This document shows positions 14,528 to 46,894 of a DNA stretch of 64,000 nucleotides, piece after piece. Below the pieces are notes generated by a model that saw only the letters and a list, made by a program, of their open reading frames with translations, had not been told where the DNA came from and made no database searches. The stretch is from Lentilitoribacter sp. (lineage in GTDB: Bacteria; Pseudomonadota; Alphaproteobacteria; Rhizobiales; Rhizobiaceae): NCBI GenBank assembly GCA_963691785.1, contig OY829371.1:795254-859253 (forward strand), given 5' to 3'. The translations under genes were made by a program, and so were the position numbers. How positions within the stretch are numbered: the first letter of the stretch is position 1; each line of letters starts with the position of its first letter.

Positions 14528-16372
14528 TTATGAAATATCGTTCGGTTCGATTTGCGTATGTGAGTAGACAGTGTTCCTTGATACTCCCAATTTTCTTGCC
14601 GTTAACGCAATATTGGATTTGCATTCAGCAAAAACTCGATTGATTTCACGACACTTAGCTTCTTTCGCGCTATTCCCTTTGCAACGTGGACAAACTACAG
14701 TACGCAATTCCTGACCAGGAATATAGCGATGGACATGTTCAGCCCGTAAAATTGTAGCCGGGCAGTGTATGATTAAAGTAGTAAGTAACTTTTCCAAATC
14801 GTAGAAGTTGCTCAGCTTATGATTATCGAAGATGACATCTATTGCAGAACGGGATAATTGGTGATTTGCCGAAAGGCGAGACATTATTGAAACTGCTATT
14901 AATGCGGCATCCGTGCGCTCACTCAGTGCAGGGAGTTGAAACTCTTGCTGGCGTAACTTGGTGAAGGTCATGGAGACAAATTTAGACCAATGTTCTTGTT
15001 CTTTGGGCGGCTCATTTTCTGTGACGATGATCGACCATTTTGCCGAAGACTTGTGCTGCAACATTCGATTTACTAGCTGAGCTAATTGCTCCGAAGCATA
15101 TCCGGTCGCTTCTGACAGGTCTTCCAATACCAGAACACCACCCGATTCGATTGTAAATTTATCGCTTACGGTGTCACTGAAAAATTCGCCCGTCAATTCC
15201 TGACTGTCGGAGTTTAAGTTCGCAACCCTGCAATCCACAGCGATCAAAGGTTTTTCGGGACAAGTTGCCTGGTGCACAGCTTGTACAAATGTCGTACGTC
15301 CAGTTCCGGATGGGCCTATAACATATTGCGGCGTCATCATCTTAGCGGATCGAATTGCCAGCTTTAAACTGTTTCGAACTTGTTCGTCTCGGAACACTGG
15401 TGAGCTCGGAAGATTTGGAACTTCGTAAGTTGGCGGAAGGTTCAATGTCAAATTTTGTGAGTTTCGATTTGACGAAATCCTTGAAATGCGGAGCCGAGCA
15501 AAAAATGCAGAATTTAACCAGTCAACAAGTCGGACACTCTCTCCTCCACGCATAGCAGACAAATTCGAGTTGAAATCGGTCCTGAAGAGATCACTGAACT
15601 TGGTTAGGTTCGAAAAGTCCAATCCGTTCAAAAGTTGAGCGGCTCGACGGTTAGCGCCAAGGATCAAGCCTTGTTCATTGAAGCTAATCATACCAACGCT
15701 CTGTGTTTTCAAATACTCCTGTCGGGGATGAAATTGAATGATTATATTTGACCTATGATCCTCTACAAATAGACGGTTTTCTATGTTGGAAGCTGCCAGT
15801 TCAACCAATGCTTGGGTATGAAATTGACGCGCTGCGACCTCTGATGAAGCGTCAAGTAGGCCCACAATCTCGCCTTGACTGTTAAAGATTGGTGAGGACA
15901 CGCAAGAAACTTTACCGTGGGAAGAAAAATAGTGTTCAGGCCCCGTAACCATACTGGTGCGGCCGGTGTAAAGCGCAAGACCAAGCGCATTAGTACCACG
16001 ATGCTCTTCATCCCAGATGGTCCCGCAGCGAACCGCACGAGCACATTTAGACAAGCTAAATTCTGTATCCATAATTGCATCGAGCACAACACCGCGGTTG
16101 TCTGCAAATGCCGTCATATAGTTTGTACCGGCTATCTGGGTGCTCAATAGTTCGAGTTCTGGGCGTACCACACGTAGCAAAGCCTCATGTTTCTGACGAG
16201 TTTCGCGAAGGGCGGCCAATCCAATATCTGCATCCAGCGGTTTCCCGACTGGATCCAATCCGTGCCGTAAACATCTGTGCCAACTATCTGCAATATGCTC
16301 TGGAACAGCTCCTGGAGCAAAACGGCCTTTTGTTTCGAGCGCAGAGCGCGCTTTCATGAACATTGATTGCAC
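14528..16372 (-). CDS. GAF-domain (AcoR-like) Fis-HTH activator with a degenerate AAA+ domain
   Basis: SWHRC...GLDP, WDEEHRGTNALG GAF motifs and TARKLGVSRNTVY HTH. Walker A reads GPSGTGRT, Walker B reads LVLEDL, and there is no GAFTGA. GTG start with GGAGG RBS. Confidence 0.85.
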   Translation of the reverse strand: MQSMFMKARSALETKGRFAPGAVPEHIADSWHRCLRHGLDPVGKPLDADIGLAALRETRQKHEALLRVVRPELELLSTQIAGTNYMTAFADNRGVVLDAIMDTEFSLSKCARAVRCGTIWDEEHRGTNALGLALYTGRTSMVTGPEHYFSSHGKVSCVSSPIFNSQGEIVGLLDASSEVAARQFHTQALVELAASNIENRLFVEDHRSNIIIQFHPRQEYLKTQSVGMISFNEQGLILGANRRAAQLLNGLDFSNLTKFSDLFRTDFNSNLSAMRGGESVRLVDWLNSAFFARLRISRISSNRNSQNLTLNLPPTYEVPNLPSSPVFRDEQVRNSLKLAIRSAKMMTPQYVIGPSGTGRTTFVQAVHQATCPEKPLIAVDCRVANLNSDSQELTGEFFSDTVSDKFTIESGGVLVLEDLSEATGYASEQLAQLVNRMLQHKSSAKWSIIVTENEPPKEQEHWSKFVSMTFTKLRQQEFQLPALSERTDAALIAVSIMSRLSANHQLSRSAIDVIFDNHKLSNFYDLEKLLTTLIIHCPATILRAEHVHRYIPGQELRTVVCPRCKGNSAKEAKCREINRVFAECKSNIALTARKLGVSRNTVYSHTQIEPNDIS

Positions 16373-24935: not shown

Positions 24936-25301
24936 ATAAACGAGCGCCGTACTGATGATGCAGATCGTGTAGTTAAGGATATACGGCGACAAACACGACG
25001 CAAATATTCCTCAGAAGATAAGATACGGATTGTATTAGCTGGCCTTCGTGGTGAAGACAGCATTGCGGAATTGTGTCGACAAGTGGGTATAGCCCAGAGC
25101 CAATATTATTCATGGTCCAAGGGGTTTCTGGAAGCTGGTAAGAAGCGATTGGCTGGTGACACCGCCAGAGAGGCAAATACTGGTGAGGTAAAGAACCTTC
25201 GCAAAGAGGCTCGTGATTTAAAGGAAGTGGTTGTTGAGCAGGCTCTGGAATTGCGCTTACTCAAAAAAAGCATGTACGAAGATGGGGGAGACGACGAATG
25301 A
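24936..25301 (+). CDS. IS3 OrfA (HTH); no canonical start codon found in frame
   Basis: ...DADRVVKDIRRQTRRKYSSEDKIRIVLAGLRGEDSIAELCR...LRLLKKS; the position where Met is expected reads ATA (24936). Confidence 0.7.
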   Translation: MNERRTDDADRVVKDIRRQTRRKYSSEDKIRIVLAGLRGEDSIAELCRQVGIAQSQYYSWSKGFLEAGKKRLAGDTAREANTGEVKNLRKEARDLKEVVVEQALELRLLKKSMYEDGGDDE

Positions 25302-26278
25302 GGTACCCCGCATCTGAAAAGCTTGAGATCATTAAGTTGGTTGAACAATCACATCTGTCTGCCAAGCAAACACTGGAAAAGCTGGGTATTCCACGATCCA
25401 CTTTTTACCGCTGGTATGATTTGTATCAAACTGGCGGCGTGGATGCTTTGGAAGATAAAGCCCCAATGCCAGCACGGGTATGGAACCGTATCCCTGATGA
25501 TATCCGTGAGCAAATTGTTGATTTAGCACTGAATGAGCCAGAGCTTTCGCCTCGTGAGCTGGCGGTCAGATTTACAGATCAACAGCAATACTTCGTGTCA
25601 GAAGCCAGCGTTTACAGGCTGCTTAAATCACATGACCTGATCACCAGCCCAGCATATATTGTTATGAAGGCTGCTGACGAGTTCCGTGATAAGACAACAG
25701 CACCCAATCAGCTTTGGCAAACAGACTTCACGTACCTCAAAATCATCGGCTGGGGTTGGTTCTATCTATCAACGGTGCTGGATGATTATTCCAGATATAT
25801 CATCGCTCATAAGTTCACACCGACCATGGCAACCAAGGATGTGACAGATACATTGGATTTAGCTTTGCAGGCTTCTGGCCGCGATCAAACAAAGGTCATT
25901 CACAAGCCACGACTTCTCTCAGATAACGGGCCTAGTTATGTCTCGACAGAGTTGGCAGAATATCTTGATGCCAATGGCATGGCTCACACCAGAGGTGCAC
26001 CATATCACCCTCAGACACAGGGCAAGATTGAGCGTTGGCACCAAACGCTGAAGAACCGCATCCTGTTAGAAAATTACTTCATACCTGGTGATCTAGAACG
26101 ACAAATCGAGGCTTTCATCGAACATTATAATTACAATCGGTATCATGAAAGTTTCAGCAATCTAACGCCTGCAGATGTTTACTTCGGGCGAGGAAAACAA
26201 ATCTTACAACAAAGAGAAAGGATCAAACAAAAGACTATTGAACAGCGACGCTTGCAAAACAAAAGACAAGCCGCATAA
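25298..26278 (+). CDS. IS3 OrfB DDE transposase
   Basis: WQTDFTY, LSDNGPSY, QGKIERWH (D-D-E). Confidence 0.93.
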   Translation: MRYPASEKLEIIKLVEQSHLSAKQTLEKLGIPRSTFYRWYDLYQTGGVDALEDKAPMPARVWNRIPDDIREQIVDLALNEPELSPRELAVRFTDQQQYFVSEASVYRLLKSHDLITSPAYIVMKAADEFRDKTTAPNQLWQTDFTYLKIIGWGWFYLSTVLDDYSRYIIAHKFTPTMATKDVTDTLDLALQASGRDQTKVIHKPRLLSDNGPSYVSTELAEYLDANGMAHTRGAPYHPQTQGKIERWHQTLKNRILLENYFIPGDLERQIEAFIEHYNYNRYHESFSNLTPADVYFGRGKQILQQRERIKQKTIEQRRLQNKRQAA

Positions 26279-26721: not shown

Positions 26722-27521
26722 GGTGGACATCTTTATCTCAAAGAGGTCCGCCAAAACGGCATGGAATAACAACATTCGTGTAACACGAAACTCCATTTTT
26801 CAATTCAGTGAGAATATTTCTAAGAAGCCCACAGAAGCCTGGCTATCGTTAGAATCTAGTCCGCTGCCAAATGTTAAGCGGACATTAATTGGAGTTTCGA
26901 CTGACTCTGTTTTTGGCCCTAAGCAGACTTTCGCCATATCTACCAACTTGTTGATGCCGAATGCTCGTGATAGGGTTCTGCGATGAAGTCGATCAAAATC
27001 CGACAGGCAACCGTTGACGATAAAGTTTTGCTCGGTGGGCTGATCAAGCACACAATCCGCGTTTCAAACTCCAGAGACTACGACCAAAGGTCAATCGATA
27101 TGCTGTGCGCGATATTTGAGCCGGAGCCTCTCGCCAAAAGAATTAAAAATGAGCTTATTCTTTTGTGTTTCGTTGGTGCTGCTCTTGTTGGAACGGTGGG
27201 GCTGAGAGAAGAATATCTGCGTTCGATGTTCGTCGAGCCTGCATATCAGGGGCAAGGGTTTGGCAAAGTACTGGTTGCAAGAATTGAAGAAGAAGCGCGA
27301 AAAAAAGAGATACCAGAAATTATGGTTCATTCCTCGCTAACAGCGCGAAAGTTTTATGCGGCCCTCGGCTATGAATTTGTGGAATTGCAATCACACCCTG
27401 AGGGACCATTCATCTTAATGAGAAAGCCGCTCCAATAACAGCTTTTGGCACCTTTCTGCATTCGGGTGACTAGCCGCTGATATCCGTTAATAGGTTCAAA
27501 GCAGACATTCGTGTAACACGA
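26722..27521. repeat. family of short imperfect hairpins (TCYGYT...AAGCRGAC) and a 17-bp direct repeat around the GNAT gene
   Basis: Hairpins at 26722-26752, 26859-26883, 26906-26927 and 27481-27509; ACATTCGTGTAACACGA at 26772-26788 and 27505-27521. Confidence 0.55.
26983..27438 (+). CDS. GNAT family N-acetyltransferase
   Basis: MFVEPAYQGQGFGKVL acetyl-CoA motif; ARKFYAALGY. Confidence 0.88.
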   Translation: MKSIKIRQATVDDKVLLGGLIKHTIRVSNSRDYDQRSIDMLCAIFEPEPLAKRIKNELILLCFVGAALVGTVGLREEYLRSMFVEPAYQGQGFGKVLVARIEEEARKKEIPEIMVHSSLTARKFYAALGYEFVELQSHPEGPFILMRKPLQ

Positions 27522-27758: not shown

Positions 27759-29060
27759 TTACCCACCAGACTTATGCACCACAAGCTGTAATTGGTCTCC
27801 GATCGATTGTGACGTCGGTCCATTATAAAGATCAAAAGGCAGCTCTAGATATGTCCAGGTTTCGATCAATGCAGATGTTAAAGCCTGAATGTGGTCTTCT
27901 GTGTGCAATGGTGATGGTGTGATGCGCAGGCGCTCGGTTCCACGCGGCACAGTCGGATAATTGATGGGTTGGATATAGATATTATGGACCTGCATCAGCC
28001 TGTCAGAGGCTTGTTTGCATAGATCCGCATCCCCAACCCAGAGCGGGATAATATGCGTGTCAGACGGCATAAGCGGCAGCTCAGCGTCGTGGAGCGCCTG
28101 TTTTGTTTGTAACACGCGCAATTGCTGCTGCTCGCGCTCGAACGAAGAAGATTTTAAATGCTGAATGGAAGCAATTGCTGCACTGGCGATCGCAGGTGGC
28201 AAGGCTTTTGTGAAAATAAAACCCGGCGCATAGGACCGTACACAGTCAATGATATTTTTTGACCCTGCGATGTACCCACCTAACACTCCAAAGGCTTTTG
28301 CAAGTGTTCCCTCAATAATATCGATGCGATGCGCGAGGCCTTCGCGCTCAGTGATGCCTCCACCATGATCACCATACATGCCCACAGCGTGAACTTCATC
28401 AATATAGGTAATGGCGTTGTATTGATCTGCAAGATCGGCAATGTCCTTGATCGGGGCTACATCACCATCCATGGAATAGACGGATTCAAAGGCAATGATT
28501 TTGGGTCTGTCTAAGTCTTCTGCTGCCAAAATTTTTTCAAGATGTTCCAGATCGTTGTGGCGGAAGATTTTCTTAGCGCAACCTGACTGGCGTATCCCTT
28601 CAATCATGGAAGCATGATTAAACTCATCGGAGATGATTAAACAATTGGGTAGCAACTTTGGCAGTGTGGAAAGTGTCGCCTGGTTAGAAACAAATCCGGA
28701 TGTGAATACCAGGGCAGCTTCCTTGTTGTGAAGATCAGCGAGTTCCTTTTCAAGCGCTACAATTGGATGTGATGTGCCTGAAATATTCCGTGTACCGCCT
28801 GCTCCGGTGCCGATGCTAGACGCAGAATTTGACATTGCCTTTATCACATTTTCATGCTGCCCCATACCGAGATAATCGTTCGAACACCAAATCGTGACTT
28901 CTTTTGCTGTATCTTTGCCATTGTCTTTGGTGTCATCGTGCGTGCGATAAATGGCTTTTGGAAACGAACCAACAATCCGCTCCAGATCTGCGAAAACACG
29001 ATAGCGATTTTCATCACGGAGTTGATCAATTGCATTTTCAAAATAATGCTGATGTTTCAT
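27759..29060 (-). CDS. hemA: 5-aminolevulinate synthase (C4 pathway)
   Basis: [55 protein letters not shown]. Confidence 0.95.
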
Positions 29061-29130
29061 AGAATTTGATCCTTAGATTGTTAGTTTGTACTCACGTTTC
29101 CAAAAGCAGTTTTGGGCGAAAGGAGAGGGA

Positions 29131-29580
29131 TCACCCAAAAATTTTGGAAAAGAAGCCCTTTTTTGGAGGTTCTACAGTCGCGGCTGCGCTTTTCATAGCA
29201 CCAGCAACCAGTCCATATGTTTCAAGCCAGGCGTCTTTAACGTCAGGCGTGAATTCCTCGCCCAAACCCTTGTCGAGTGTGTAAATCAGCGCTTCACCAA
29301 CTGTGTCATAATGCTCGTCTTTAACGCCATATCCGACATGCTTTTTCGCCAGGTCCTGAATGGTCGGCAGGATTGTTTCCACCTGGTGCAAATTATTCAC
29401 GGCAACACCCAAAGTCTGCATCAATTTTGTTTTTTGATCTTTCATTTCCGCCGGAAACATAGAGCGTACGGAAGGCGCGATTTCAAACAGGCGGTCGTAA
29501 AAAATATCGGCAGCAGTTTCCGCAATGGGTTCAACTTTTGAAAAACTACCTTGAACCAGTTTAATTTGTTCTGGGGTCAT
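29131..29580 (-). CDS. single-domain (flavohaemoglobin-type) globin
   Basis: FYDRLFEIAP (TyrB10), DQKTKL (GlnE7), KKHVGYGV (HisF8), HYDTVGEAL; C-terminal KKGFFSKIFG. Confidence 0.92.
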   Translation of the reverse strand: MTPEQIKLVQGSFSKVEPIAETAADIFYDRLFEIAPSVRSMFPAEMKDQKTKLMQTLGVAVNNLHQVETILPTIQDLAKKHVGYGVKDEHYDTVGEALIYTLDKGLGEEFTPDVKDAWLETYGLVAGAMKSAAATVEPPKKGFFSKIFG

Positions 29581-29599
29581 TGATTTTCCTTTCTATTAA

Positions 29600-30064
29600 T
29601 CAATTTAAGTTTTGTGTGGCTGCCTCCTGGCCCCCACTGTGGTAGATCATGAAGCGAACGGCGGATTCCACTTCAATATCGGTTAGCTCATCATTGCCGC
29701 CGCGTGCGGGCATATTGCCGCCAGATGGGCTTAAGAAACCGTTTTGAGCATTGGCCACGAGAACCTCCAATCCCTTTTCAATTCGTGGTGCCCAAAATTT
29801 GGATCCAGTAATTTTCGGGGCGCCGAAATTTCCGGTTCCATGACAAATTTTGCAATTTTGATCCCAAACCTGCGCCCCTTCTTCAATAAGGGTGAATTCG
29901 GTTTTGGGGAGACGCTCGATTTTAACGAGGCGTTTTAATCCACGCTCTGGATAAGGCGGATATTCCACCTTAATTTCATCAGCGATGGTTCCATGGGTGA
30001 GCAAAAACCCACCCATGACAAAGACACCGCCAACAAATTTTTGAAATTTTGTCAGCTGTTTCAT
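29600..30064 (-). CDS. cytochrome c5-family monohaem protein
   Basis: Signal peptide, CKICH, GAPK, W..RIEKG, NMPARGG (axial Met); start MKQLT at 30064. Confidence 0.88.
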   Translation of the reverse strand: MKQLTKFQKFVGGVFVMGGFLLTHGTIADEIKVEYPPYPERGLKRLVKIERLPKTEFTLIEEGAQVWDQNCKICHGTGNFGAPKITGSKFWAPRIEKGLEVLVANAQNGFLSPSGGNMPARGGNDELTDIEVESAVRFMIYHSGGQEAATQNLN

Positions 30065-30068
30065 GGTG

Positions 30069-30638
30069 TTAGCCTTCCAATGGAATTCGGATAACAACGC
30101 CACCCATAACATCGCCAACTTTAAAGTCAGTCCGCGGGCTGTCTTTATGCTCGTTGTGACAAGTTGCGCAAACCTCAGCAACAGCCACATCGGCATAAAC
30201 GGCAGTGAAATATTTCAGATCATCAATGACTTCTTCACCGTAGAAATTTTCGCCAATATTATCGGCAACAAATTTCAAACCTTCTTTTTCAAGCTCGGTT
30301 TGGTTTTCCGCATTTGGCTTGTTAATCGGCCAAAGTGACTGCAAAGAATATTCAAAAAGGTCGGTGCGATCAGCCACAGCTTCTGCACCCATGCGGAACA
30401 TTTGAGCAGGGAGTGGTGCTGAAATATCATCTTCAAAATTCTCAGTCGCCTTGATCAATTTATGTTCAGCGACCAGACGGCCAACGATCATTTTCGTGTA
30501 GATTGTGCGGTCAGAATCCATCACTGCATGCAGCATGTCGGTGACGTCTGCGGGGTCAATGCCGTCGGCATTTGTTGTCGAAACTGGTATGGCGGCAAGC
30601 AGGGCGCCTGCAACCAGCATATTGATTATTTTCGACAT
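30069..30638 (-). CDS. secreted DUF3365 (Tll0287-like) haem c protein
   Basis: Signal peptide, PLPAQMFR, SLWPINKPN, CATCH, FKVGDVMGGVVIRIP. Confidence 0.8.
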   Translation of the reverse strand: MSKIINMLVAGALLAAIPVSTTNADGIDPADVTDMLHAVMDSDRTIYTKMIVGRLVAEHKLIKATENFEDDISAPLPAQMFRMGAEAVADRTDLFEYSLQSLWPINKPNAENQTELEKEGLKFVADNIGENFYGEEVIDDLKYFTAVYADVAVAEVCATCHNEHKDSPRTDFKVGDVMGGVVIRIPLEG

Positions 30639-30677
30639 GAGTATTATCTCCTTTGTGTTGCTTAAACGTGCAATAAA

Positions 30678-30722
30678 GCGAGGGATAGGATTTAGTGGGC
30701 CTAATCACGTCCTATTCCTCGC
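30678..30722 (-). other. intra-operon hairpin at the end of the multihaem gene
   Basis: GCGAGG-GATAGGA...TCCTATT-CCTCGC inverted repeat; weak U-tract on the minus strand. Confidence 0.45.
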
Positions 30723-32283
30723 GTCTCAATGCCCAATCGATGCTTTCAATATGCTTCGATGGACGCCCATTGAAATTATTTTCAACGAGTTCTGGGTCTG
30801 CCAGGGCATCAATGGAAAATCCTAACCCATGACATGACATACAAACCGGCCGGATCATTTTTTCGTTTGGCCGTAAAAAGTCGTTTTGATTGTGCGAAGT
30901 GAAGAAGCTGTCGCCAGCTTTAATTTTTGGCATATGGCAATCTGCGCAACTCACACCTGATCCTGGGGCGCCATCACCTGCAAGTTCCAACTGCCAAAGT
31001 TCAAAATGCCGCGAGTTAAAATAATTCTGCGTATGCGCATCATTATGACACGATGTGCAAGCTTCCACGGCAGCCACTTCAAGCTTGACGTCATGTGGTT
31101 TATGGCAGGTGTTGCAATTGCCAATTTCCATGTCATGCACATCCGGCTTCATCAAATCTTTGCGCGATGTTTGCCCCACGCTTGTGGGTCCCAATGGCGT
31201 ATCTTTGAACACATGCACCGCGACAGACATTGGGCCGTCAGCCTCAACGGTACGTGGCTTGGCGATCTCTGGGTGAAAACGCATACCATGCTTGCCCATT
31301 GTAAAGGTCTTGGCTTGGTTTTCATGGCAATCAGAACAAACGGCAAGCCCCGGTTTTTCGATCCAATTTTCTTCTAAAAGAACCAGATCAGTCATGTCTT
31401 TATAGTCTGGCGCGTGACAAGCCGCACAATTCAAACCGGCGCCAGCATGCGCTGATGTTTCCCATGCGGTGATAGCTTCCTCATCATGATATTGTTCGGG
31501 TGCGATCACATCTTTTGCATATAGAACAAGATCGAGCATCTCTTTCGCTTTCGCGCGATTATCAGGTTTTACCCCATCTTGCTCGGCGTTTTGGGTGTCG
31601 CGATCGTTCAAATATGATTCAAGTGCGGTGATCGGATCATCTTCGACCAAGGCGGTGCGGATGATCGGCGGTGTACGGCTCATTGCGGCAAATTCTTGAA
31701 TGGCATCGGGGAGAAAATCTTCACCATGGCCATGCTTGACTAAAAACGCTTCATAAAGCGCGGTATTGTCATGGTAGTTGTGGCAGCCAGCAGAGGCGCA
31801 TGTTGTAAACTCCAACCCGGCATGGCTTTCGCGTTCTTCACCAATTTTCGTGTGGCATGCAACGCAAAGATCCTGCGGCAAAGACACAGCCATGGGTCGG
31901 GTAATTTCCGGCACGTGTTCGGCATGGCAAGTTTGGCAGTAAAATGCATTTAATTGCGCACGTGTTTTGGCTTTTTTGGCACCTCTGAATTTTTTAGTCG
32001 GGTGGGAATCGTTTGCTGCGCTGAGCTCTTCAAGATGGCAGGTGCCGCATGCCTTGGTCATAGCCGCTGCAAGTTTTTTCGGGCTCTTAGTCAGATTGTC
32101 GATAAGCCCGGTTGTGTGGCAGCTTTCGCATGCCAGCTCAATTTGCCCGTGGGCTGCTGTTGTTTTCCCAATCAATAAAAGATGCCGTGGGCCACCAACA
32201 AAAACAACACCCATTATGATCATAATGCCCATGAGCGATAAGATGGTCCATAAAACCCAGAGCATATGATTTCGTTTAATCAA
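30712..32283 (-). CDS. membrane-anchored 11-haem cytochrome c
   Basis: Ten CxxCH (CESCH, CGTCH, CQTCH, CVACH, CAACH, CSDCH, CNTCH, CTSCH, CADCH, CMSCH) plus one CX4CH (CASAGCH); N-terminal TM; probable TTG start at 32283. Confidence 0.92.
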   Translation of the reverse strand: MIKRNHMLWVLWTILSLMGIMIIMGVVFVGGPRHLLLIGKTTAAHGQIELACESCHTTGLIDNLTKSPKKLAAAMTKACGTCHLEELSAANDSHPTKKFRGAKKAKTRAQLNAFYCQTCHAEHVPEITRPMAVSLPQDLCVACHTKIGEERESHAGLEFTTCASAGCHNYHDNTALYEAFLVKHGHGEDFLPDAIQEFAAMSRTPPIIRTALVEDDPITALESYLNDRDTQNAEQDGVKPDNRAKAKEMLDLVLYAKDVIAPEQYHDEEAITAWETSAHAGAGLNCAACHAPDYKDMTDLVLLEENWIEKPGLAVCSDCHENQAKTFTMGKHGMRFHPEIAKPRTVEADGPMSVAVHVFKDTPLGPTSVGQTSRKDLMKPDVHDMEIGNCNTCHKPHDVKLEVAAVEACTSCHNDAHTQNYFNSRHFELWQLELAGDGAPGSGVSCADCHMPKIKAGDSFFTSHNQNDFLRPNEKMIRPVCMSCHGLGFSIDALADPELVENNFNGRPSKHIESIDWALRREE

Positions 32284-32293
32284 ATCCCGTCCC

Positions 32294-34303
32294 CTAATAC
32301 ATATAAACAACGAGAACATGGATCGCGATCAGTACCGGCAAAGGCCATACCGCGATGATGTGTACCCACATTGGAAAGGTGCGCGGCTTGGCATTATTGG
32401 CGCTGAAACCACGCTCCTTTAATTCGTGTTCACCTCCTGTGATGAGACCAGCGATCGCGCCAAAAATGAGCGTAATGACGAAACTTAGCATCAAGAGGAG
32501 ATTAAAATTGCTGCCAAGTCGAAATCCGGTGTGCCAGACCAGGACGAGAGCGGCAGCAAAACCAATGATTAAATGTATAAGGCGCCAGGCTTGGTAACTG
32601 CCCAATTTGGATAAAAAACCAATTCGCTTTCGAAGCCCAATAATAGCCGCCGCGACAGATAGGCCGAGTAAGGTGTAGCCTGAATATTGCTTCCATATGG
32701 TGTCAAACCAAAGATCAAACCAAAAATCGTCCACGATGTAAGTGTCGGCCATGCCGATCCGTGGAAGCAACAAAGTAGCAAGGGCAGCCAAAGCACCAAG
32801 ACCGGATATGATGAGAAGCGCCTTCCACCATTTCACAGGTTCGGGTTTCATATCTCCTTGACCCAAAAGCTCATTGATCAATGGTCCGCAAGAGCCGCAA
32901 ACACTGTTGGCGCTTGTGGCTGAGCGGACATCATCGAGATTGGAAGCACCCAAGGTTATCGCATCGGAAATCGCGCCTTTCGTCACGCCAGTGCAATTGC
33001 AGATAATCGCTTCTTTGGGCCAGGTGGCAACGCTGTCATCTGCACCTTTCCACAATTGTCCAGAGCGTTGGAACGACCATATCTGCCAGGGCCAAACTGA
33101 AATTTTATCTCCAACGGCTTGCTGTAATTTTGTCGCTTCGGGCCAATCTCCGACACCTAAAGCTGCGACTAATTTTCCGCGCGAGACCAAAAGCCGACGA
33201 TAAACATCTGTCTCAATATCTCGATAGGTATAGCTTTTTATCCCGGGTTGTTGTTCGATGGATTCAAAATCGCCAATCGAGAACACATCAGCGCCGACCA
33301 CTTTTAATTTCGTGGTTGGTGTTGAACCTAAATAGATATTGCTCTCATCACCATTGATATCGGCAACAGCAATGTTTGTTTGCTCATAGCCCGGTCCAAC
33401 CAAGCCATAGACATGTTCATTGTGTTCAGCGCATTCACCGATCGCGTAAATATCGGGATCGGATGTGCACATTTGGTCATTGACGATGACACCGCGATTA
33501 TGCGCCAAACCAATCGCGGCAGGCAGCTGTGTATTGGCGCGAACGCCAGTACAAACAATCACAGTATCGGCTTTGATGGTATCACCATTTCCAAGTGTAA
33601 TAATTTCTGCGCGGGTATCGCCGTCAATTGATTGGACACGTTGGTTTACAACGACATCAATACCAATAGCCTCAATGCGGTCTTTTAATGTATTGCCAGC
33701 CGCTAAATCGAGTTGTCTTGGCATCAAACGATTTTCGTGTTCGACGACAGTGACCTTTGCGCCACGTTTGGCCATGCCTCTGGCAGCCTCGAGGCCAAGC
33801 AGTCCTCCGCCGATAACAACAACATTCCGGGCCGACATGGATCGGGCAATTAGAGCCTCGACATCATCAAAATTTCGGAACGAAAAAACACCTGATAGCT
33901 TCGAACCCTCAATATTGGGAATGAAGGCACGAGACCCAAGCGCGAAAATCAGTTTTGAATAGAAATATGTTCGACCGTTTGACGCTAGAACCTGCTTATT
34001 CTCTCGATCGATATCGATCGCCGACACACCATCATAACGATTGATTTTCCCTGGGCGAGGCGCATATTCGCTGGCATATATTTGCCCAAGCTGCGTCTCG
34101 CCGGCGAGAAGTGGGGTCAGTTTCACACGATTATAAGGACGCCAGCGTTCGGCATTTAACAGAATGACGTGGAACCCACTCCGCGACAATTCCTGCGCAG
34201 CACGCGTTCCTATAGGACCGCCACCGATAATAACGATGACGTTCTGATTGGCGACCGCAGTTTCGGCTTCTTCATCGAAGCCAATTTTCGTCGAGACATT
34301 CAT
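32294..34303 (-). CDS. NirB-N-terminus-like NAD(P)H/FAD oxidoreductase + BFD-like [2Fe-2S] + C-terminal di-haem b membrane domain fusion
   Basis: IIGGGPIG (FAD), VIGGGLLGLE (NAD), CNC...CGSC, then about 5 TM segments with two H-x13-H motifs; no sirohaem/4Fe-4S domain. Confidence 0.88.
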   Translation of the reverse strand: MNVSTKIGFDEEAETAVANQNVIVIIGGGPIGTRAAQELSRSGFHVILLNAERWRPYNRVKLTPLLAGETQLGQIYASEYAPRPGKINRYDGVSAIDIDRENKQVLASNGRTYFYSKLIFALGSRAFIPNIEGSKLSGVFSFRNFDDVEALIARSMSARNVVVIGGGLLGLEAARGMAKRGAKVTVVEHENRLMPRQLDLAAGNTLKDRIEAIGIDVVVNQRVQSIDGDTRAEIITLGNGDTIKADTVIVCTGVRANTQLPAAIGLAHNRGVIVNDQMCTSDPDIYAIGECAEHNEHVYGLVGPGYEQTNIAVADINGDESNIYLGSTPTTKLKVVGADVFSIGDFESIEQQPGIKSYTYRDIETDVYRRLLVSRGKLVAALGVGDWPEATKLQQAVGDKISVWPWQIWSFQRSGQLWKGADDSVATWPKEAIICNCTGVTKGAISDAITLGASNLDDVRSATSANSVCGSCGPLINELLGQGDMKPEPVKWWKALLIISGLGALAALATLLLPRIGMADTYIVDDFWFDLWFDTIWKQYSGYTLLGLSVAAAIIGLRKRIGFLSKLGSYQAWRLIHLIIGFAAALVLVWHTGFRLGSNFNLLLMLSFVITLIFGAIAGLITGGEHELKERGFSANNAKPRTFPMWVHIIAVWPLPVLIAIHVLVVYMY

Positions 34304-34328
34304 AAATTAACTCGCAAGAAATGTCGTC

Positions 34329-34379
34329 AAAAGAAAAAACGCCATATACGCAAATGTGATCACATTTGCGTATATGGCG
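34329..34379 (-). terminator. leader attenuator terminator
   Basis: Perfect 40-bp palindrome 34340-34379 followed on the minus strand by UUUUUUCUUUU, 37 nt before the ATG. Confidence 0.88.
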
Positions 34380-34407
34380 CCATTGCCCGAATGCCCTTCA
34401 TTGGGCA
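34376..34407 (-). promoter_or_regulatory. ANTAR dual-hexaloop antiterminator RNA motif
   Basis: P1 UGCCC-AAUGAA-GGGCA and P2 GGC-AAUGGC-GCC; both loops have A1/G4 and C-G closing pairs; P2 overlaps the terminator 5' arm. Confidence 0.85.
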
Positions 34408-34417
34408 GAACAAACTA

Positions 34418-34434
34418 TGCAAGTAGTGTGCCAA
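34418..34434 (-). promoter_or_regulatory. sigma-54 (-24/-12) promoter
   Basis: Minus strand TTGGCACACTACTTGCA matches TGGCAC-N5-TTGCW with correct GG-N10-GC spacing, just upstream of the ANTAR motif. Confidence 0.9.
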
Positions 34435-34516: not shown

Positions 34517-34533
34517 TGCTCAATGTATGTGCA
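34517..34533. promoter_or_regulatory. NtrC-like enhancer site
   Basis: TGCTC-N7-GTGCA (one mismatch to TGCAC-N7-GTGCA) about 100 bp upstream of the sigma-54 promoter; adjacent TGCAC half-site at 34535. Confidence 0.65.
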
Positions 34534-34794
34534 GTGCACAATTTTAATCATCTTGGCAGATGAAAGTGATATGTTCAAATTAATGGCGCTGAACATAAAA
34601 GGCCTTTGTATTTGGACACCGATGAACTACGGGATAGATCAAACGTTAGGAAAATATTGCTCTAAATCGGTTTGGCTCACAAGATCTGGACCGCGCAGTT
34701 CGGACCAGATTAGCCTTACCGGTAATCAAAGTTAGAGCATTGTTTGCCCATAAGAATTGAGCTTACGAAAAGTGACTAAATTTAAATCGGTTCT

Positions 34795-43111: not shown

Positions 43112-43869
43112 AAATTCCTCCCTGGAAATAGACGCCCCATGCGTCTTGAGAAAATCATCGTTTAAAACATGCGCACTCGTCTAATATTTTTATTGCTATG
43201 ATATATACTATTTTGTCAATTATTTCGCTGTTTTATTAAAAAATATGATGTTTTTGTACAAGCGCACGGTATTTATGCAGTATTTGAGCTGTTTCTCGAC
43301 GTTGAGATTTTGTGACCTGAGGAGCTCAATTGTCATTGACGCACTGCAATATAAGGCTTTGATTCATTTTATAACGTGACGTTCAAAAATCTGATTTTAG
43401 AAAATGCATGTTCTGAAAAAGGTGAAAAAAGTATCACCATCTAGCGGCGCATAAAAAATAAGCAATCAGACTAAGAGTATTTGTTGCCTGAAACACTCAT
43501 GGAGAAACTAAGTATAAGGCAAAAATTTCAGGAAAACTTCGAACAATTTTGGTTAGTCTGAAAAGTGATTTGCGACAAAATGGAACTGCCTAATAAGTTC
43601 GGATAAGGCAGGATAACTTTTGATGCCGTGAATATACCTGATAATATAAAAGAGTTGGTTGTACCCACCGTGTGCCCACAATGCGGGACAATTATTCAAA
43701 AAATCACAAGTTAATTCGATTTAAACCGATTAGAATTTGTCAGGCCTATTTGCAAGCGAGCTGACTTTATGTATGCATCCCTATCACTTTACATCAGTGA
43801 ACTGTTGGGTGCCAATCCAAAACAATTTTCCGAGGTGAGAAGAGAAGCCTCGGATTGATAGGAAAAGAC

Positions 43870-45438
43870 ATGACCATAATTGGAACGCCGAAAGAATCAG
43901 TGAAGGATGAAAATCGCGTCGCGATGACACCGCAATCTGTCAAAGAACTTCAAAAACTTGGCTATGATTGCATAATTCAAAGTGGAGCAGGCGACGCTGC
44001 TCGTTTTTCAGACGCTGACTATAAAGACGCGGGTGCTAGTGTCGTTAAGACAGCAAAAGACCTTTGGGACAAAGCCGATGTTGTTGCCAAGGTTCGTCCG
44101 CCGAGCGCAACTGAATCTAAAAAAATGCGCGACGGCCAAACCGTCGTTAGTTTCGTGTATCCAACGGATAATGAAAAGCTGATGAAAACTGCAGCCGAAG
44201 CCGGCAGCACATTAATTGCAATGGATATGGTGCCACGTATTTCTCGTGCACAGAAAATGGACGCATTGTCCTCCATGGCAAATATTGCGGGTTATCGCGC
44301 TGTTGTTGAAGCAAGTAATAATTTCGGTCGTTTCTTCACCGGTCAAATTACAGCAGCTGGTAAAGTACCGCCTGCAAAAATCATGGTGGTCGGTGCTGGT
44401 GTTGCAGGTCTTGCTGCCATTGGCGCTGCGCAAAGCATGGGCGCTATTGTTCGTGCCTTTGATGTGCGTCCGGAAGTTGCTGAGCAAATTGAATCCATGG
44501 GTGCTGAATTCCTGTTCCTTGATTTTGAAGATAATCAGGATGGTGCAGGTACTGGCGGTTATGCGGCGCCATCTTCCCCTGAATTCCGTGAAAAGCAATT
44601 GGCGCTCTTCCGTGAGCAAGCCCCTGATGTTGACATCGTTATCACAACGGCTTTGATCCCGGGACGCGACGCACCAAAGCTTTGGCTTAAAGACATGGTT
44701 GAAGCCATGAAGCCAGGTTCCGTTGTTGTCGACTTGGCTGCAGAGCGTGGCGGTAACTGCGATCTGACGGTAAAAGATGAGAAGATTGAAACTGAAAATG
44801 GTGTGACGATTATTGGTTACACAGACTTCCCAAGCCGCATGGCAACTCAGTCTTCAACGCTTTATGCAACCAATATCCGCCATATGATGACCGATCTGAC
44901 ACCTGAAAAAGATGGTGTGATTGTCCATGACATGGAAGATGACGTGATCCGCGGTGCAACGGTTGCCCATAAGAAAGAGATTACCTTCCCACCGCCAAAG
45001 CCAAAGATTGCAGCGATTGCTGCTGCCAAACCGAAAGAGCCTGAAAAGACTTCGGAAGAACTGGCAGCAGAAGAAGCAGCCGCCTTTAAAAAGGCAACGA
45101 AACAACAAGTTGGCCTACTGTTAGCGGGTGGTCTTCTTGTGCTCGGTGTTGGTACTGTTGCGCCAGCAAGCTTCATGCAGCATTTCATTGTGTTTGTCTT
45201 GGCCGTATTTGTTGGCTTCCAAGTTATTTGGAATGTAAGCCATTCCCTACATACACCTTTGATGGCTGTGACCAATGCGATTTCATCGATCATCATCTTG
45301 GGTGCATTGATGCAAATCGGGTCTGGGTCCTTCCTCGTTATTCTCCTTGCTGCATTATCTGTCTTTATGGCGAGTTTGAATATCTTTGGTGGCTTCCTCG
45401 TCACGCGTCGCATGCTTGCCATGTTCCAGAAGTCTTAA
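43870..45438 (+). CDS. pntA: NAD(P) transhydrogenase alpha subunit (fused dI plus TM)
   Basis: RAQKMDALSS, GAGVAGL, HSLHTPLMAVTNAISS. Confidence 0.96.
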   Translation: MTIIGTPKESVKDENRVAMTPQSVKELQKLGYDCIIQSGAGDAARFSDADYKDAGASVVKTAKDLWDKADVVAKVRPPSATESKKMRDGQTVVSFVYPTDNEKLMKTAAEAGSTLIAMDMVPRISRAQKMDALSSMANIAGYRAVVEASNNFGRFFTGQITAAGKVPPAKIMVVGAGVAGLAAIGAAQSMGAIVRAFDVRPEVAEQIESMGAEFLFLDFEDNQDGAGTGGYAAPSSPEFREKQLALFREQAPDVDIVITTALIPGRDAPKLWLKDMVEAMKPGSVVVDLAAERGGNCDLTVKDEKIETENGVTIIGYTDFPSRMATQSSTLYATNIRHMMTDLTPEKDGVIVHDMEDDVIRGATVAHKKEITFPPPKPKIAAIAAAKPKEPEKTSEELAAEEAAAFKKATKQQVGLLLAGGLLVLGVGTVAPASFMQHFIVFVLAVFVGFQVIWNVSHSLHTPLMAVTNAISSIIILGALMQIGSGSFLVILLAALSVFMASLNIFGGFLVTRRMLAMFQKS

Positions 45439-45451
45439 GGGGAGAAGTTAA

Positions 45452-46894
45452 ATGAGTATTGGTCTTACTACGGCTGCATATGTTGTTGCAGCAGTCCTCT
45501 TCATTCTGTCCCTTGGTGGTCTGTCAGGACAAGAAAGTGCGAAGCGCGCGGTTTGGTATGGTATTGTTGGGATGGCTTTGGCTGTTCTTGCAACATTGAT
45601 GGGTCCAGGATCTGGTCTTTGGTATTTGTCTATACCGCTCATCATTGGTGGTGGTGTCATTGGTTATATGGTCGCCCAGCGTGTTCAAATGACAGAGATG
45701 CCGCAACTTGTTGCAGCCATGCACTCGCTCGTAGGTCTAGCGGCTGTATTTGTTGCCTTCATTGCGCATTTTGAAATAGATAATGTGCGTTATGCGCAAG
45801 AAGTCTCTGGTGAAGATGTAAAATCACTTGGCGCTTTTGCAGCTTTAATTGCCAAGAAGTCAGCGGTTGAAATCAACATTCTTCGTGTTGAATTATATCT
45901 CGGTCTATTCATCGGTGCGATCACATTCACCGGTTCTGTTATTGCCTTTGGTAAGCTTGCCGGCAAGGTGACATCGGCCGCTGAAAAGCTACCAGGTGGC
46001 CATGCGCTTAATGCTGGCGCTGCGATCATCTCGTTGATCTGTTTGATCTGGTATTTCAACACCGGTGGTCTTTTGCCGCTCATCATCATGACAATCATGG
46101 CGCTGTTTATCGGTTACCATTTGATCATGGGTATCGGTGGCGCTGATATGCCAGTTGTTGTGTCCATGCTGAATTCATATTCTGGTTGGGCTGCAGCAGC
46201 GATCGGTTTTTCATTGGGCAACGACCTTCTCATTGTGGTTGGTGCGCTTGTGGGTTCATCCGGTGCCATTTTGTCCTACATCATGTGTAAAGCGATGAAC
46301 CGTTCGTTCATTAGCGTTATTCTTGGTGGCTTTGGTGGTGCCTCTGGTCCTGCGATGGAAATTGAAGGCGAGCAAATCGCCATCGATGCAGATGGTGTTG
46401 CAACAGCCCTTGATGAAGCTGATAGCATTGTCATCGTGCCAGGTTACGGCATGGCGGTTGCCCAAGCTCAGGCTTCGATTTCCGAGCTAACAAGACGCCT
46501 TCGCGCAAAAGGCAAAGAAGTTCGTTTTGCCATTCACCCAGTTGCAGGTCGTTTGCCTGGTCATATGAACGTGCTATTGGCGGAAGCCAAAGTACCATAT
46601 GACATTGTGATGGAAATGGATGAAATCAACGATGATTTCCCAGACACTGATGTGTGTATCATTGTTGGTTCCAACGACATTGTGAACCCAGCAGCACAAG
46701 AAGATCCAAATTCTCCAATTGCCGGCATGCCTGTATTGGAAGTATGGAAAGCCAAACAAGTGTTTGTGTCAAAACGTGGTCAGGGTACTGGTTATTCTGG
46801 CATCGAGAACCCGCTTTTCTTTAAAGAGAATACGCGCATGTTCTATGGTGATGCGAAACAGTCTGTCGACATGTTGCTGCAGAAAATTTCATAA
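45452..46894 (+). CDS. pntB: NAD(P) transhydrogenase beta subunit
   Basis: [40 protein letters not shown]. Confidence 0.96.

Follow-up and report, generated by a model that had tools for sequence, protein, structure and literature searches.

A NirB-type flavoprotein fused to a four-histidine membrane domain: a candidate NADH-to-periplasm electron exporter encoded with a cassette of haem-protein genes

Introduction

Transfer of electrons from a flavoprotein that oxidises NAD(P)H into a membrane relay of two haems is the principle of the NADPH oxidases and of the MsrQ/Fre system. In the NOX proteins (NOX5, SpNOX and CsNOX; PF01794), the cytoplasmic NAD(P)H-flavin module and the membrane domain belong to one polypeptide. 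The third and the fifth membrane helix each bear two histidines, spaced by about 13 residues, and the stack of two b haems that these ligate passes electrons outward. Here we report on a gene of Lentilitoribacter sp. (assembly GCA_963691785.1, contig OY829371.1), located in a stretch of 64,000 nucleotides (nt; positions 795,254 to 859,253 of the contig), which as a whole is referred to as the window. The predicted product, hereafter called the target, also combines a reductase and a membrane domain with histidine pairs on its third and fifth helices. Unlike NOX, however, its reductase has the pyridine-nucleotide-disulfide-oxidoreductase fold of NirB with an added BFD-type [2Fe-2S] domain, and lies at the NH2-terminal rather than the COOH-terminal end; the membrane domain is predicted to have five helices instead of six, and electrons probably go to a multihaem cytochrome c instead of O2.

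Other described systems resemble parts of this locus. The DUF4405, MsrQ and PepSY-like cytochromes are small membrane domains with four highly conserved central histidines, for which binding of haem b and transfer of electrons through the membrane to periplasmic redox partners have been shown or proposed; in the case of DUF4405, purified proteins were found to bind haem b by the pyridine haemochrome assay (PMC11334425). The published DUF4405 proteins have six helices, stand alone and are linked to ApbE flavinylation, whereas the target domain has five helices, is fused to a reductase and showed no ApbE link. NirB itself (TIGR02374) shares with residues 23-481 of the target the FAD, NADH and BFD [2Fe-2S] modules, but in the target the catalytic half made of the NIR_SIR_ferr and NIR_SIR domains is replaced by the membrane domain. 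The nirBD operon is also a known object of antitermination, exerted by NasT on the leader NalA (PMC10783516), and nas operons are known to be under the dual control of NtrC/RpoN together with NasST or NasR. A close precedent, judged by its description, is the Flp-Bjgb system of the Bradyrhizobium narK-bjgb-flp-nasC genes (PMC4724949); Flp, however, is described as a cytoplasmic-type oxidoreductase, and that account mentions neither a membrane domain nor a multihaem cytochrome nor an sCache_haem protein. Finally, NrfH/CymA, NrfA and the octahaem nitrite reductases bring to mind the multihaem partner of the target, in which an NH2-terminal membrane helix is followed by c-type haems.

Results

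A NirB front half joined to a four-histidine membrane domain

Our analysis suggests that the target is, on balance, probably a membrane flavo-iron-sulfur cytochrome b that exports electrons from NADH to a multihaem cytochrome outside the membrane. Its gene and domains, in window coordinates, are the following.

32294..34303, minus strand: target coding sequence, 669 residues; NirB-type NADH/FAD reductase, BFD [2Fe-2S] domain and five-helix, four-histidine membrane domain
33395..34237, minus strand: Pyr_redox_2 FAD/NAD(H) domain, residues 23-303, with motifs GGGPIG and GGGLLG (Pfam E 1e-62)
33104..33319, minus strand: Rubredoxin_C-type C-terminal domain of the reductase, residues 329-400 (Pfam E 5.7e-15)
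32861..33007, minus strand: BFD-like [2Fe-2S] domain, residues 433-481, C435-x-C437...C469-x2-C472 (Pfam E 4.5e-14)
32297..32836, minus strand: membrane domain, residues 490-669, weakly DUF4405-like, from AlphaFold2, hydropathy and loop charges
32531..32575, minus strand: histidine pair H577-x13-H591 of the third transmembrane helix (TM3), proposed axial ligands, one per haem b
32318..32362, minus strand: histidine pair H648-x13-H662 of TM5, proposed second axial ligands

An earlier note on this DNA, written without database searches, had described the gene as a NirB-like flavoprotein with FAD and NAD Rossmann motifs and one BFD cluster, in which a di-haem membrane domain takes the place of the catalytic half. 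We gathered more than 100 full-length homologues (650-720 residues, 48-99% identity, 92-100% query coverage), and the conservation figures given for the target derive from an alignment of 121 sequences. The front half proved to be as described: the motifs GGGPIG (for FAD) and GGGLLG (for NAD) do not vary, and the four BFD cysteines (C435, C437, C469 and C472) are kept in 120 or 121 of the aligned sequences. When compared to the NCBIfam NirB model TIGR02374, residues 23-481 cover positions 1-466 of 794 only and score 392 bits, against a cutoff of 578; because the alignment stops there and the score falls below the cutoff, the sirohaem/[4Fe-4S] half of NirB is absent, as the note had maintained, and a Pfam scan of the target returned no NIR_SIR match. 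The solved structures nearest in sequence are NH2-terminal domains of the NirB family and ferredoxin/rubredoxin reductases, none of which covers the COOH-terminus. From what is generally established for Rossmann folds, the invariant E188, with which the second beta-strand of the fold ends, points to NADH as the likely donor.

The COOH-terminal region was predicted in the same note to form about five membrane helices, and an AlphaFold2 model of residues 483-669, built from a 34-sequence alignment, indeed shows five long helices with a predicted local distance difference test (pLDDT) score of 82.9. These helices span approximately residues 493-515 (TM1), 541-560 (TM2), 574-596 (TM3), 603-624 (TM4) and 646-669 (TM5); four segments average 1.5 or more on the Kyte-Doolittle scale over 19 residues, and the second helix is less hydrophobic. 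The two histidine-bearing strings on which the earlier proposal of H-x13-H pairs rested, IHLIIGFAAALVLVWH and VHIIAVWPLPVLIAIH, are both found in the translation, and every one of the 121 homologues, the most distant at 48% identity, has H577, H591, H648 and H662. All four are also retained in the GPP34- and FNR-type relatives described below, at 38-45% identity. W573, R574 and the motif W653-P654-x-P656 are invariant as well, and the mean identity to the target is 0.585 over the membrane domain versus 0.60-0.66 over the flavoprotein domains, so that the COOH-terminal region is a conserved part of these proteins.

The loops between TM2 and TM3 and between TM4 and TM5 carry on average 5.4 and 4.1 lysine plus arginine residues, respectively, versus 2.0 and 1.0 in the remaining two loops. 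Hydropathy and loop charges fit a topology with five crossings, the NH2-terminus inside and the COOH-terminus outside. The histidine pairs then lie within the membrane, as proposed, with H577 and H648 a single turn away from the cytoplasmic side, and H591 and H662 close to the periplasmic one. Of the outcomes that the earlier note had named as fatal to its proposal, a poorly conserved COOH-terminal region and histidine pairs outside the membrane are thus both contradicted by these computations. One histidine of each pair near each face is the geometry of two stacked bis-histidine haems and, judging from the sequence, the domain most likely carries two haems.

Assigning this domain to a family was less straightforward. 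No Pfam family scored above threshold over residues 482-669. The only recurring match was DUF4405 (PF14358), found in 16 of the 34 members at E < 1 and always below threshold (target: E 0.002, 19.0 bits, gathering cutoff 26.7); other sub-threshold matches were to Ni_hydr_CYTB (4/34 members) and to the Ferric_reduct family PF01794 (3/34, best E 0.019). DUF4405, Ni_hydr_CYTB and Ferric_reduct belong together in the Pfam clan of two-haem cytochromes.

The same membrane domain behind other modules

A profile search of 1.84 billion representative proteins retrieved 719 clusters (50% identity) at E <= 0.001, and in the 150 best matches listed the membrane domain ends at most four residues from the COOH-terminus in all but four short proteins (P0270, P0272, P0361 and P0388). 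Pattern scanning of one genome per species found the domain encoded in 322 species, and conservation of the family thus goes far beyond chance. Cultivable carriers include Hartmannibacter diazotrophicus, Actibacterium atlanticum and Thalassococcus halodurans. The best 80 loci belong mainly to Rhodobacterales, Hyphomicrobiales and other Alphaproteobacteria, with some Gammaproteobacteria, and the closest relatives of the target come from metagenome-assembled genomes (MAGs) of Rhizobiaceae, at 88-92% identity.

The NirB-type fusion is the majority architecture, and two further kinds of partner module were found, in all of which both H-x13-H pairs are kept. In the first, which occurs in Gamma- and Alphaproteobacteria, the domain follows a GPP34 (GOLPH3-like, PF05719) module in proteins of approximately 390 residues that have no redox module (loci L066, L067, L071, L073, L076, L077, L078, L079, L081 and L083; the open reading frame (ORF) of L078 is shorter and was placed in this group by similarity alone). 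In the second, the reductase is of the FNR type: P0263 (951 residues) is built of an EF-hand pair, BFD, FAD_binding_6, NAD_binding_1 and the membrane domain, and the bacterial protein P0323 (1013 residues; loci L086 and L087) of three cNMP-binding domains followed by the same series. The layout of P0263 and P0323, with EF-hands and an FNR-like dehydrogenase in the former, resembles that of NOX5 and may be regulated by calcium or by cyclic nucleotides. P0263 was named "nitric-oxide synthase" by the Joint Genome Institute (JGI). We also observed P0338 (1262 residues), a NirB-type reductase with BFD at residues 450-497 and the membrane domain at residues 1088-1262, separated by about 590 residues without a Pfam match.

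In all flanks examined, a multihaem cytochrome gene lies directly downstream in the NirB-, GPP34- and cNMP/FNR-type architectures; the gene after P0323 encodes a 10-haem homologue (37% identity, E 1e-100) of the cytochrome encoded next to the target. NAD(P)H-flavin modules of two unrelated kinds, both accompanied by a BFD domain, are therefore joined to one membrane domain with a cytochrome next to it, which is what would be expected if the domain relays electrons from the reductase outward to the cytochrome. Electron export by a single polypeptide, put forward in the earlier note for the target alone, gains support from these arrangements.

A cassette of haem proteins

All six genes of the cassette to which the target belongs are present in the window, from 27759 to 34303, the target gene being followed by these five.

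30712..32265, minus strand: membrane-anchored 11-haem cytochrome c, with 10 CxxCH motifs, one Cx4CH motif and an NH2-terminal membrane helix
30069..30638, minus strand: stand-alone Tll0287-like/sCache_haem c-type haem protein, periplasmic (Pfam PF11845 E 3e-16, 60.6 bits, cutoff 24.1)
29600..30064, minus strand: periplasmic monohaem cytochrome c (Pfam Cytochrome_CBB3 E 7e-12)
29131..29580, minus strand: cytoplasmic single-domain globin, a relative of the Hmp globin domain (Pfam Globin E 9e-18)
27759..29060, minus strand: 5-aminolevulinate (ALA) synthase, for supply of haem precursor (TIGR01821, 639 bits, cutoff 338)

In the 63 loci of the NirB type whose downstream sequence is long enough, the multihaem cytochrome is present in at least 61, the Tll0287-like/sCache_haem protein in 62, the globin in 56, the monohaem cytochrome c in 43 and ALA synthase in 8, always at the same position, which makes the latter an optional member. 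The target gene comes first in at least 61 of these loci. The genes around the cassette vary from locus to locus, and clustering of flanking ORFs revealed no conserved neighbour other than the nas genes of six loci, the large clusters being mostly opposite-strand shadow ORFs.

That the neighbour is an 11-haem protein, as noted before, is borne out by the invariance of its 10 CxxCH motifs and its one Cx4CH motif in 75/75 sequences. The longest ORF begins at 32319 and overlaps the target gene by 26 nt; conservation sets in at about residue 16, which makes the Met at 32265 the probable start. Its closest named relative comes from a Lentilitoribacter MAG. In the case of the monohaem cytochrome c, the longest ORF extends to 30196 and overlaps the upstream gene by 128 nt; homologues have 140-155 residues, and the Met at 30064, ahead of a signal peptide, is probably the start. 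The globin aligns with positions 3-136 of the NCBIfam flavohaemoprotein model (E 1.5e-22).

The sCache_haem protein has a signal peptide-like NH2-terminus, one CATCH motif and no other cysteine, and so differs from Tll0287, in which an additional cysteine could serve as axial ligand. Stand-alone members of this class bind haem c, and their function is still to be delineated; the one that has been measured has a potential of +123 mV, as a redox carrier might, and bound nitric oxide (NO) weakly (bioRxiv 10.64898/2026.02.01.703092). Because no cysteine is found beyond the CATCH motif, the Cys/His haem ligation predicted in that preprint for Tll0287-like stand-alone proteins is excluded here.

Elsewhere in the window, an insertion-sequence transposase of the rve (DDE) type with helix-turn-helix (HTH) domains is encoded at 25298-26278 on the plus strand, approximately 1.5 kb past the ALA synthase end of the cassette, with a GNAT acetyltransferase gene at 26983-27438 in between. 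Ten kb upstream of the target, pntA and pntB (43855-46894, plus strand) encode a membrane NAD(P) transhydrogenase; this proximity bears on the supply of NADH and NADPH but is probably coincidental.

An antitermination leader and its link to nitrate assimilation

We inspected 490 nt upstream of the target gene for promoter and leader elements, and identified those listed here.

34528..34541, minus strand: inverted repeat TTGTGCACTGCACA, about 105 nt upstream of the -24 element, kept in seven relatives
34418-34433, minus strand: sigma-54 promoter, TGGCAC-N5-TTGCA, the single match in 64 kb on either strand
34392..34407, minus strand: leader hairpin P1, ugccc-AAUGAA-gggca, with an ANTAR-type hexaloop carrying A1 and G4
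34376..34387, minus strand: leader hairpin P2, ggc-AAUGGC-gcc
34328..34381, minus strand: intrinsic terminator with a perfect 20-bp stem and a U-run, 35 nt before the ATG

By our own estimate, about 0.1 matches to the sigma-54 pattern would be expected by chance in the window, and the promoter is kept in loci L004, L005, L006, L015, L026, L030 and L032. The inverted repeat has a consensus of roughly TTGYGC-N3-GCACAA, 100-127 nt upstream of the -24 element (L004, L005, L006, L015, L026 and L030 being among the carriers). It stands where an activator, perhaps NtrC-like, would be expected to bind, and we regard it as a putative site that differs from the textbook NtrC sequence and has no activator gene close by.

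Downstream of the promoter, the 3' end of the P2 loop and the 3' arm of P2 (GGCGCC) are also the first six bases of the 5' arm of the terminator, and P2 and the terminator are therefore mutually exclusive. The first 41 nt alone fold as P1 and P2, and the full leader as P1 and the terminator (-42.4 kcal/mol, z = -7.2). Targets of ANTAR proteins have been defined by a dual hexaloop with A1 and G4, the second hairpin overlapping a terminator (PMC8934654); on sequence grounds, the predicted anatomy of the target leader is that of an ANTAR antiterminator. Hairpins with an AAYGNN hexaloop occur at 4.30 per kb in leaders versus 0.128 per kb elsewhere, at least one being present in 45/61 leaders, and a looser A..G.. 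pattern yields 99 hairpins in 54 of 60 leaders versus 17 in shuffled sequences. In these 99, loop position 2 is A in 73, loop position 3 is a pyrimidine in 79 and the loop is closed by a C-G pair in 86, the remainder of the stem being freely variable. An Rfam scan of the leader gave only spurious sub-threshold matches to miRNA-like hairpins and no matching family. As a candidate for the 20-bp palindrome, an operator for NsrR, CRP or NorR was considered and dropped, as the ANTAR reading with its dual hexaloop and terminator fitted and proved to be conserved.

The genomic setting of relatives points in the same direction. In six loci (L022, L023, L024, L068, L082 and L084) an ANTAR gene (nasT; Pfam E 4e-19) adjoins the cassette. 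All six also have NMT1_2 genes (nasS/nrtA), L082 with a downstream nrtA only, and five of the six have an ABC permease gene (nrtB). In L082 and L068 the nrtA homologues are preceded by leaders of the same design, with a sigma-54 promoter, cAAYGNNg hairpins and a terminator, and parts of this design also occur in L084, L022 and L023. The GPP34 variants come without the leader, the globin and the cytochrome c, and the link to nitrate hence belongs to the NirB-type cassette. This regulatory and genomic connection was missed by the earlier note. From these data it is tempting, if as yet rather tentative, to place the NirB-type operon in the nitrate-assimilation regulon of NtrC/sigma-54 and NasT (ANTAR), where it might supply periplasmic electrons for reduction of a nitrogen-oxide by-product or substrate.

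Discussion

In the path that we propose, NADH would be oxidised at the cytoplasmic NirB-like half, and electrons would pass from FAD to the BFD [2Fe-2S] cluster, on to an inner haem b held by H577 and H648, and then to an outer haem b held by H591 and H662. From there they would reach the membrane-anchored 11-haem cytochrome c and, through the sCache_haem protein and the monohaem cytochrome c, a periplasmic acceptor, so as to reduce NO, nitrite or hydroxylamine. What we infer in this scheme is that haem b is bound, that electrons flow in this direction and that the 11-haem protein is contacted directly. The operon would be expressed when nitrogen is limiting and nitrate or nitrite is present, and the cytoplasmic globin would remove NO inside the cell, where the same flavoprotein may keep it reduced, as proposed for Flp-Bjgb. 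Such a chain would dissipate membrane potential, and would consequently seem to serve in detoxification, scavenging or redox balance and not in energy conservation.

Several findings weigh against this picture, either in its membrane part or in its regulatory part. A Foldseek search of the Protein Data Bank (PDB) with the membrane-domain model had a best E of 0.16, with no solved di-haem membrane protein resembling the model and with NOX, STEAP and MsrQ all missing from the top 50 matches listed; the search of PDB sequences with the membrane-domain profile was empty, and hhalign of that profile against E. coli MsrQ (NC_000913.3) was null, a weak test given its single-sequence template. It is because of these three null results that we call the domain DUF4405-like only and, on present sequence evidence, would not file it under the ferric-reductase, MsrQ or b561 families. 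In the earlier note the domain was likened to these families; the pairing of histidines on TM3 and TM5 stands, and the only family matches, to DUF4405, Ni_hydr_CYTB and Ferric_reduct, are below threshold. As for regulation, neither nas genes nor an ANTAR gene was found among the window ORFs scanned with family models, and the canonical GAFTGA activator motif is absent across the whole 64 kb; in 84 loci it was found in three ORFs only (L026, L049 and L050), none of which consistently adjoins the cassette. Furthermore, L082 encodes a full-length nirB with NIR_SIR domains beside the cassette, which is hence not simply a replacement for NirB. The remaining points concern the 11-haem protein and the GPP34 variants, and are taken up below with the explanations that they favour. 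An ORF of 614 residues in the window (14528-16372, minus strand), 18 kb from the promoter, combines a GAF domain, weak sigma-54-interaction and AAA+ matches and a COOH-terminal HTH without GAFTGA, and may encode an atypical or degenerate enhancer-binding protein.

The most serious competing explanation couples the system to quinones: the four-histidine domain would, like NarI, FdnI or CybB, be a di-haem cytochrome b that reacts with quinones, with the fusion acting as a dedicated NADH:quinone reductase, or else with the membrane domain oxidising quinol, while a head of the NrfH/CymA kind feeds the 11-haem cytochrome from the quinone pool, which would then be used and not, as the earlier note had it, bypassed. 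The GPP34 variants, which have no reductase and yet keep a multihaem cytochrome as next gene and usually the sCache_haem protein too, speak for this, as their membrane domain, which works there without a fused reductase, must accept electrons from elsewhere, possibly from quinol. So does the NH2-terminus of the 11-haem protein (residues 35-181), weakly similar to NrfH (E 0.0012), since NrfH-type proteins are quinol dehydrogenases and quinol could also feed electrons at that point, as do the Ni_hydr_CYTB matches of the membrane domain. On the other hand, the NrfH match is far below cutoff (18.9 vs 134 bits), and the first haem motif of the 11-haem protein does not show CxxCHxM, the signature of NrfH. 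The fusion of two unrelated NAD(P)H modules with BFD to the same domain is what would be expected of a direct feed from reductase to haem, and we judge quinone coupling to be unlikely.

A purely cytoplasmic task, in which the flavoprotein reduces ferric globin or nitrate reductase and the COOH-terminal helices merely anchor or regulate it, would account for the frequency of the globin among the loci and has a precedent in Flp-Bjgb under NasT control. Retention of four invariant histidines, W573/R574 and the WPxP motif in 121 homologues and through three architectures, however, is not to be expected of a plain anchor. In the GPP34- and FNR-type variants, moreover, the cytochrome partner is present and no globin was detected, and the tightest partners of the target are periplasmic haem proteins. 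We find this proposal improbable.

The probability that the flavo-cytochrome b and the 11-haem protein together form a NADH-dependent periplasmic reductase of nitrite (or hydroxylamine) to ammonium also appears to us to be low. Such an assimilatory complex would be in line with the nas-type regulation and the adjoining nas genes, and would render the "nitrite reductase" label right for the complex and wrong for the polypeptide. It also draws on the COOH-terminal two-haem module of the 11-haem protein (CADCHMPK...SH...CxxCH), which resembles NrfA and the octahaem nitrite reductases and aligns with TvNiR residues 370-433, hemes 7-8 of the octahaem enzyme (E 1e-7), and on the name given to the partner by the Prokaryotic Genome Annotation Pipeline (PGAP), "ammonia-forming cytochrome c nitrite reductase subunit c552". 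Against the NrfA equivalog models, however, the protein scores 20-23 bits where the cutoffs are 595-692, and the PGAP name is for this reason not supported. Structural comparison by AlphaFold2 and Foldseek, with a low-confidence NH2-terminal pentahaem part, gave only a local match of 59-67 columns to W. succinogenes NrfA and no global one. With 11 haems, no CxxCK and 12-13 conserved non-motif histidines in 75 sequences, enough for bis-histidine ligation of all 11 haems, the partner differs from both NrfH and NrfA, and may be a pure electron wire without a catalytic haem, which counts against the proposed reduction step of our own scheme as well. The full-length nirB beside the cassette in L082 is a further argument against an assimilatory complex. 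Reverse flow, with the haem proteins oxidising a periplasmic substrate and electrons moving inward to NAD+, is formally allowed by a reversible cofactor chain but is hardly credible on thermodynamic grounds, as it would oppose the membrane potential and run uphill to NAD+ (-320 mV) from carriers such as the sCache_haem protein measured at +123 mV.

Export of NADH electrons to the multihaem cytochrome is, in our view, the explanation that best accommodates these data. A wider proposal, which is possible but doubtful at this stage, is that the five- or six-gene cassette constitutes a complete and so far unrecognised NADH-powered system for reduction or scavenging of nitrogen oxides in the periplasm. 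It would be the outside-membrane arm of the NtrC/NasT regulon, with a new di-haem b family working without quinones, a first defined function for sCache_haem proteins, and a flavoprotein that doubles as globin reductase.

Literature searches, whose coverage left out most subscription journals, found no paper on this architecture or cassette. While the principle of a di-haem relay fed by a flavoprotein is known, the parts, the set of partners and the regulon are new. The earlier note also anticipated that automated pipelines would mislabel the gene, and homologues of the target are indeed named "nitrite reductase (NADH) large subunit" or "Nitrite reductase [NAD(P)H]" in databases, and elsewhere "FAD-dependent oxidoreductase". 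Our results correct two systematic misannotations in the collections searched, that of the target as a nitrite reductase large subunit and that of its partner as c552.

Should haem binding and NADH-driven export prove true, the target would be a bacterial counterpart of the NADPH oxidases assembled from half of NirB, a [2Fe-2S] cluster and a domain resembling DUF4405, by which cytoplasmic reducing power is routed to periplasmic haem enzymes, possibly bypassing the respiratory chain. The cassette also places the stand-alone sCache_haem proteins in a genetic context and suggests which reductase might serve single-domain globins. In marine and soil Alpha- and Gammaproteobacteria, the regulon for nitrate assimilation would gain an unexpected haem-rich periplasmic branch, with approximately 16 haems per set and, in some genomes, an ALA synthase dedicated to it.

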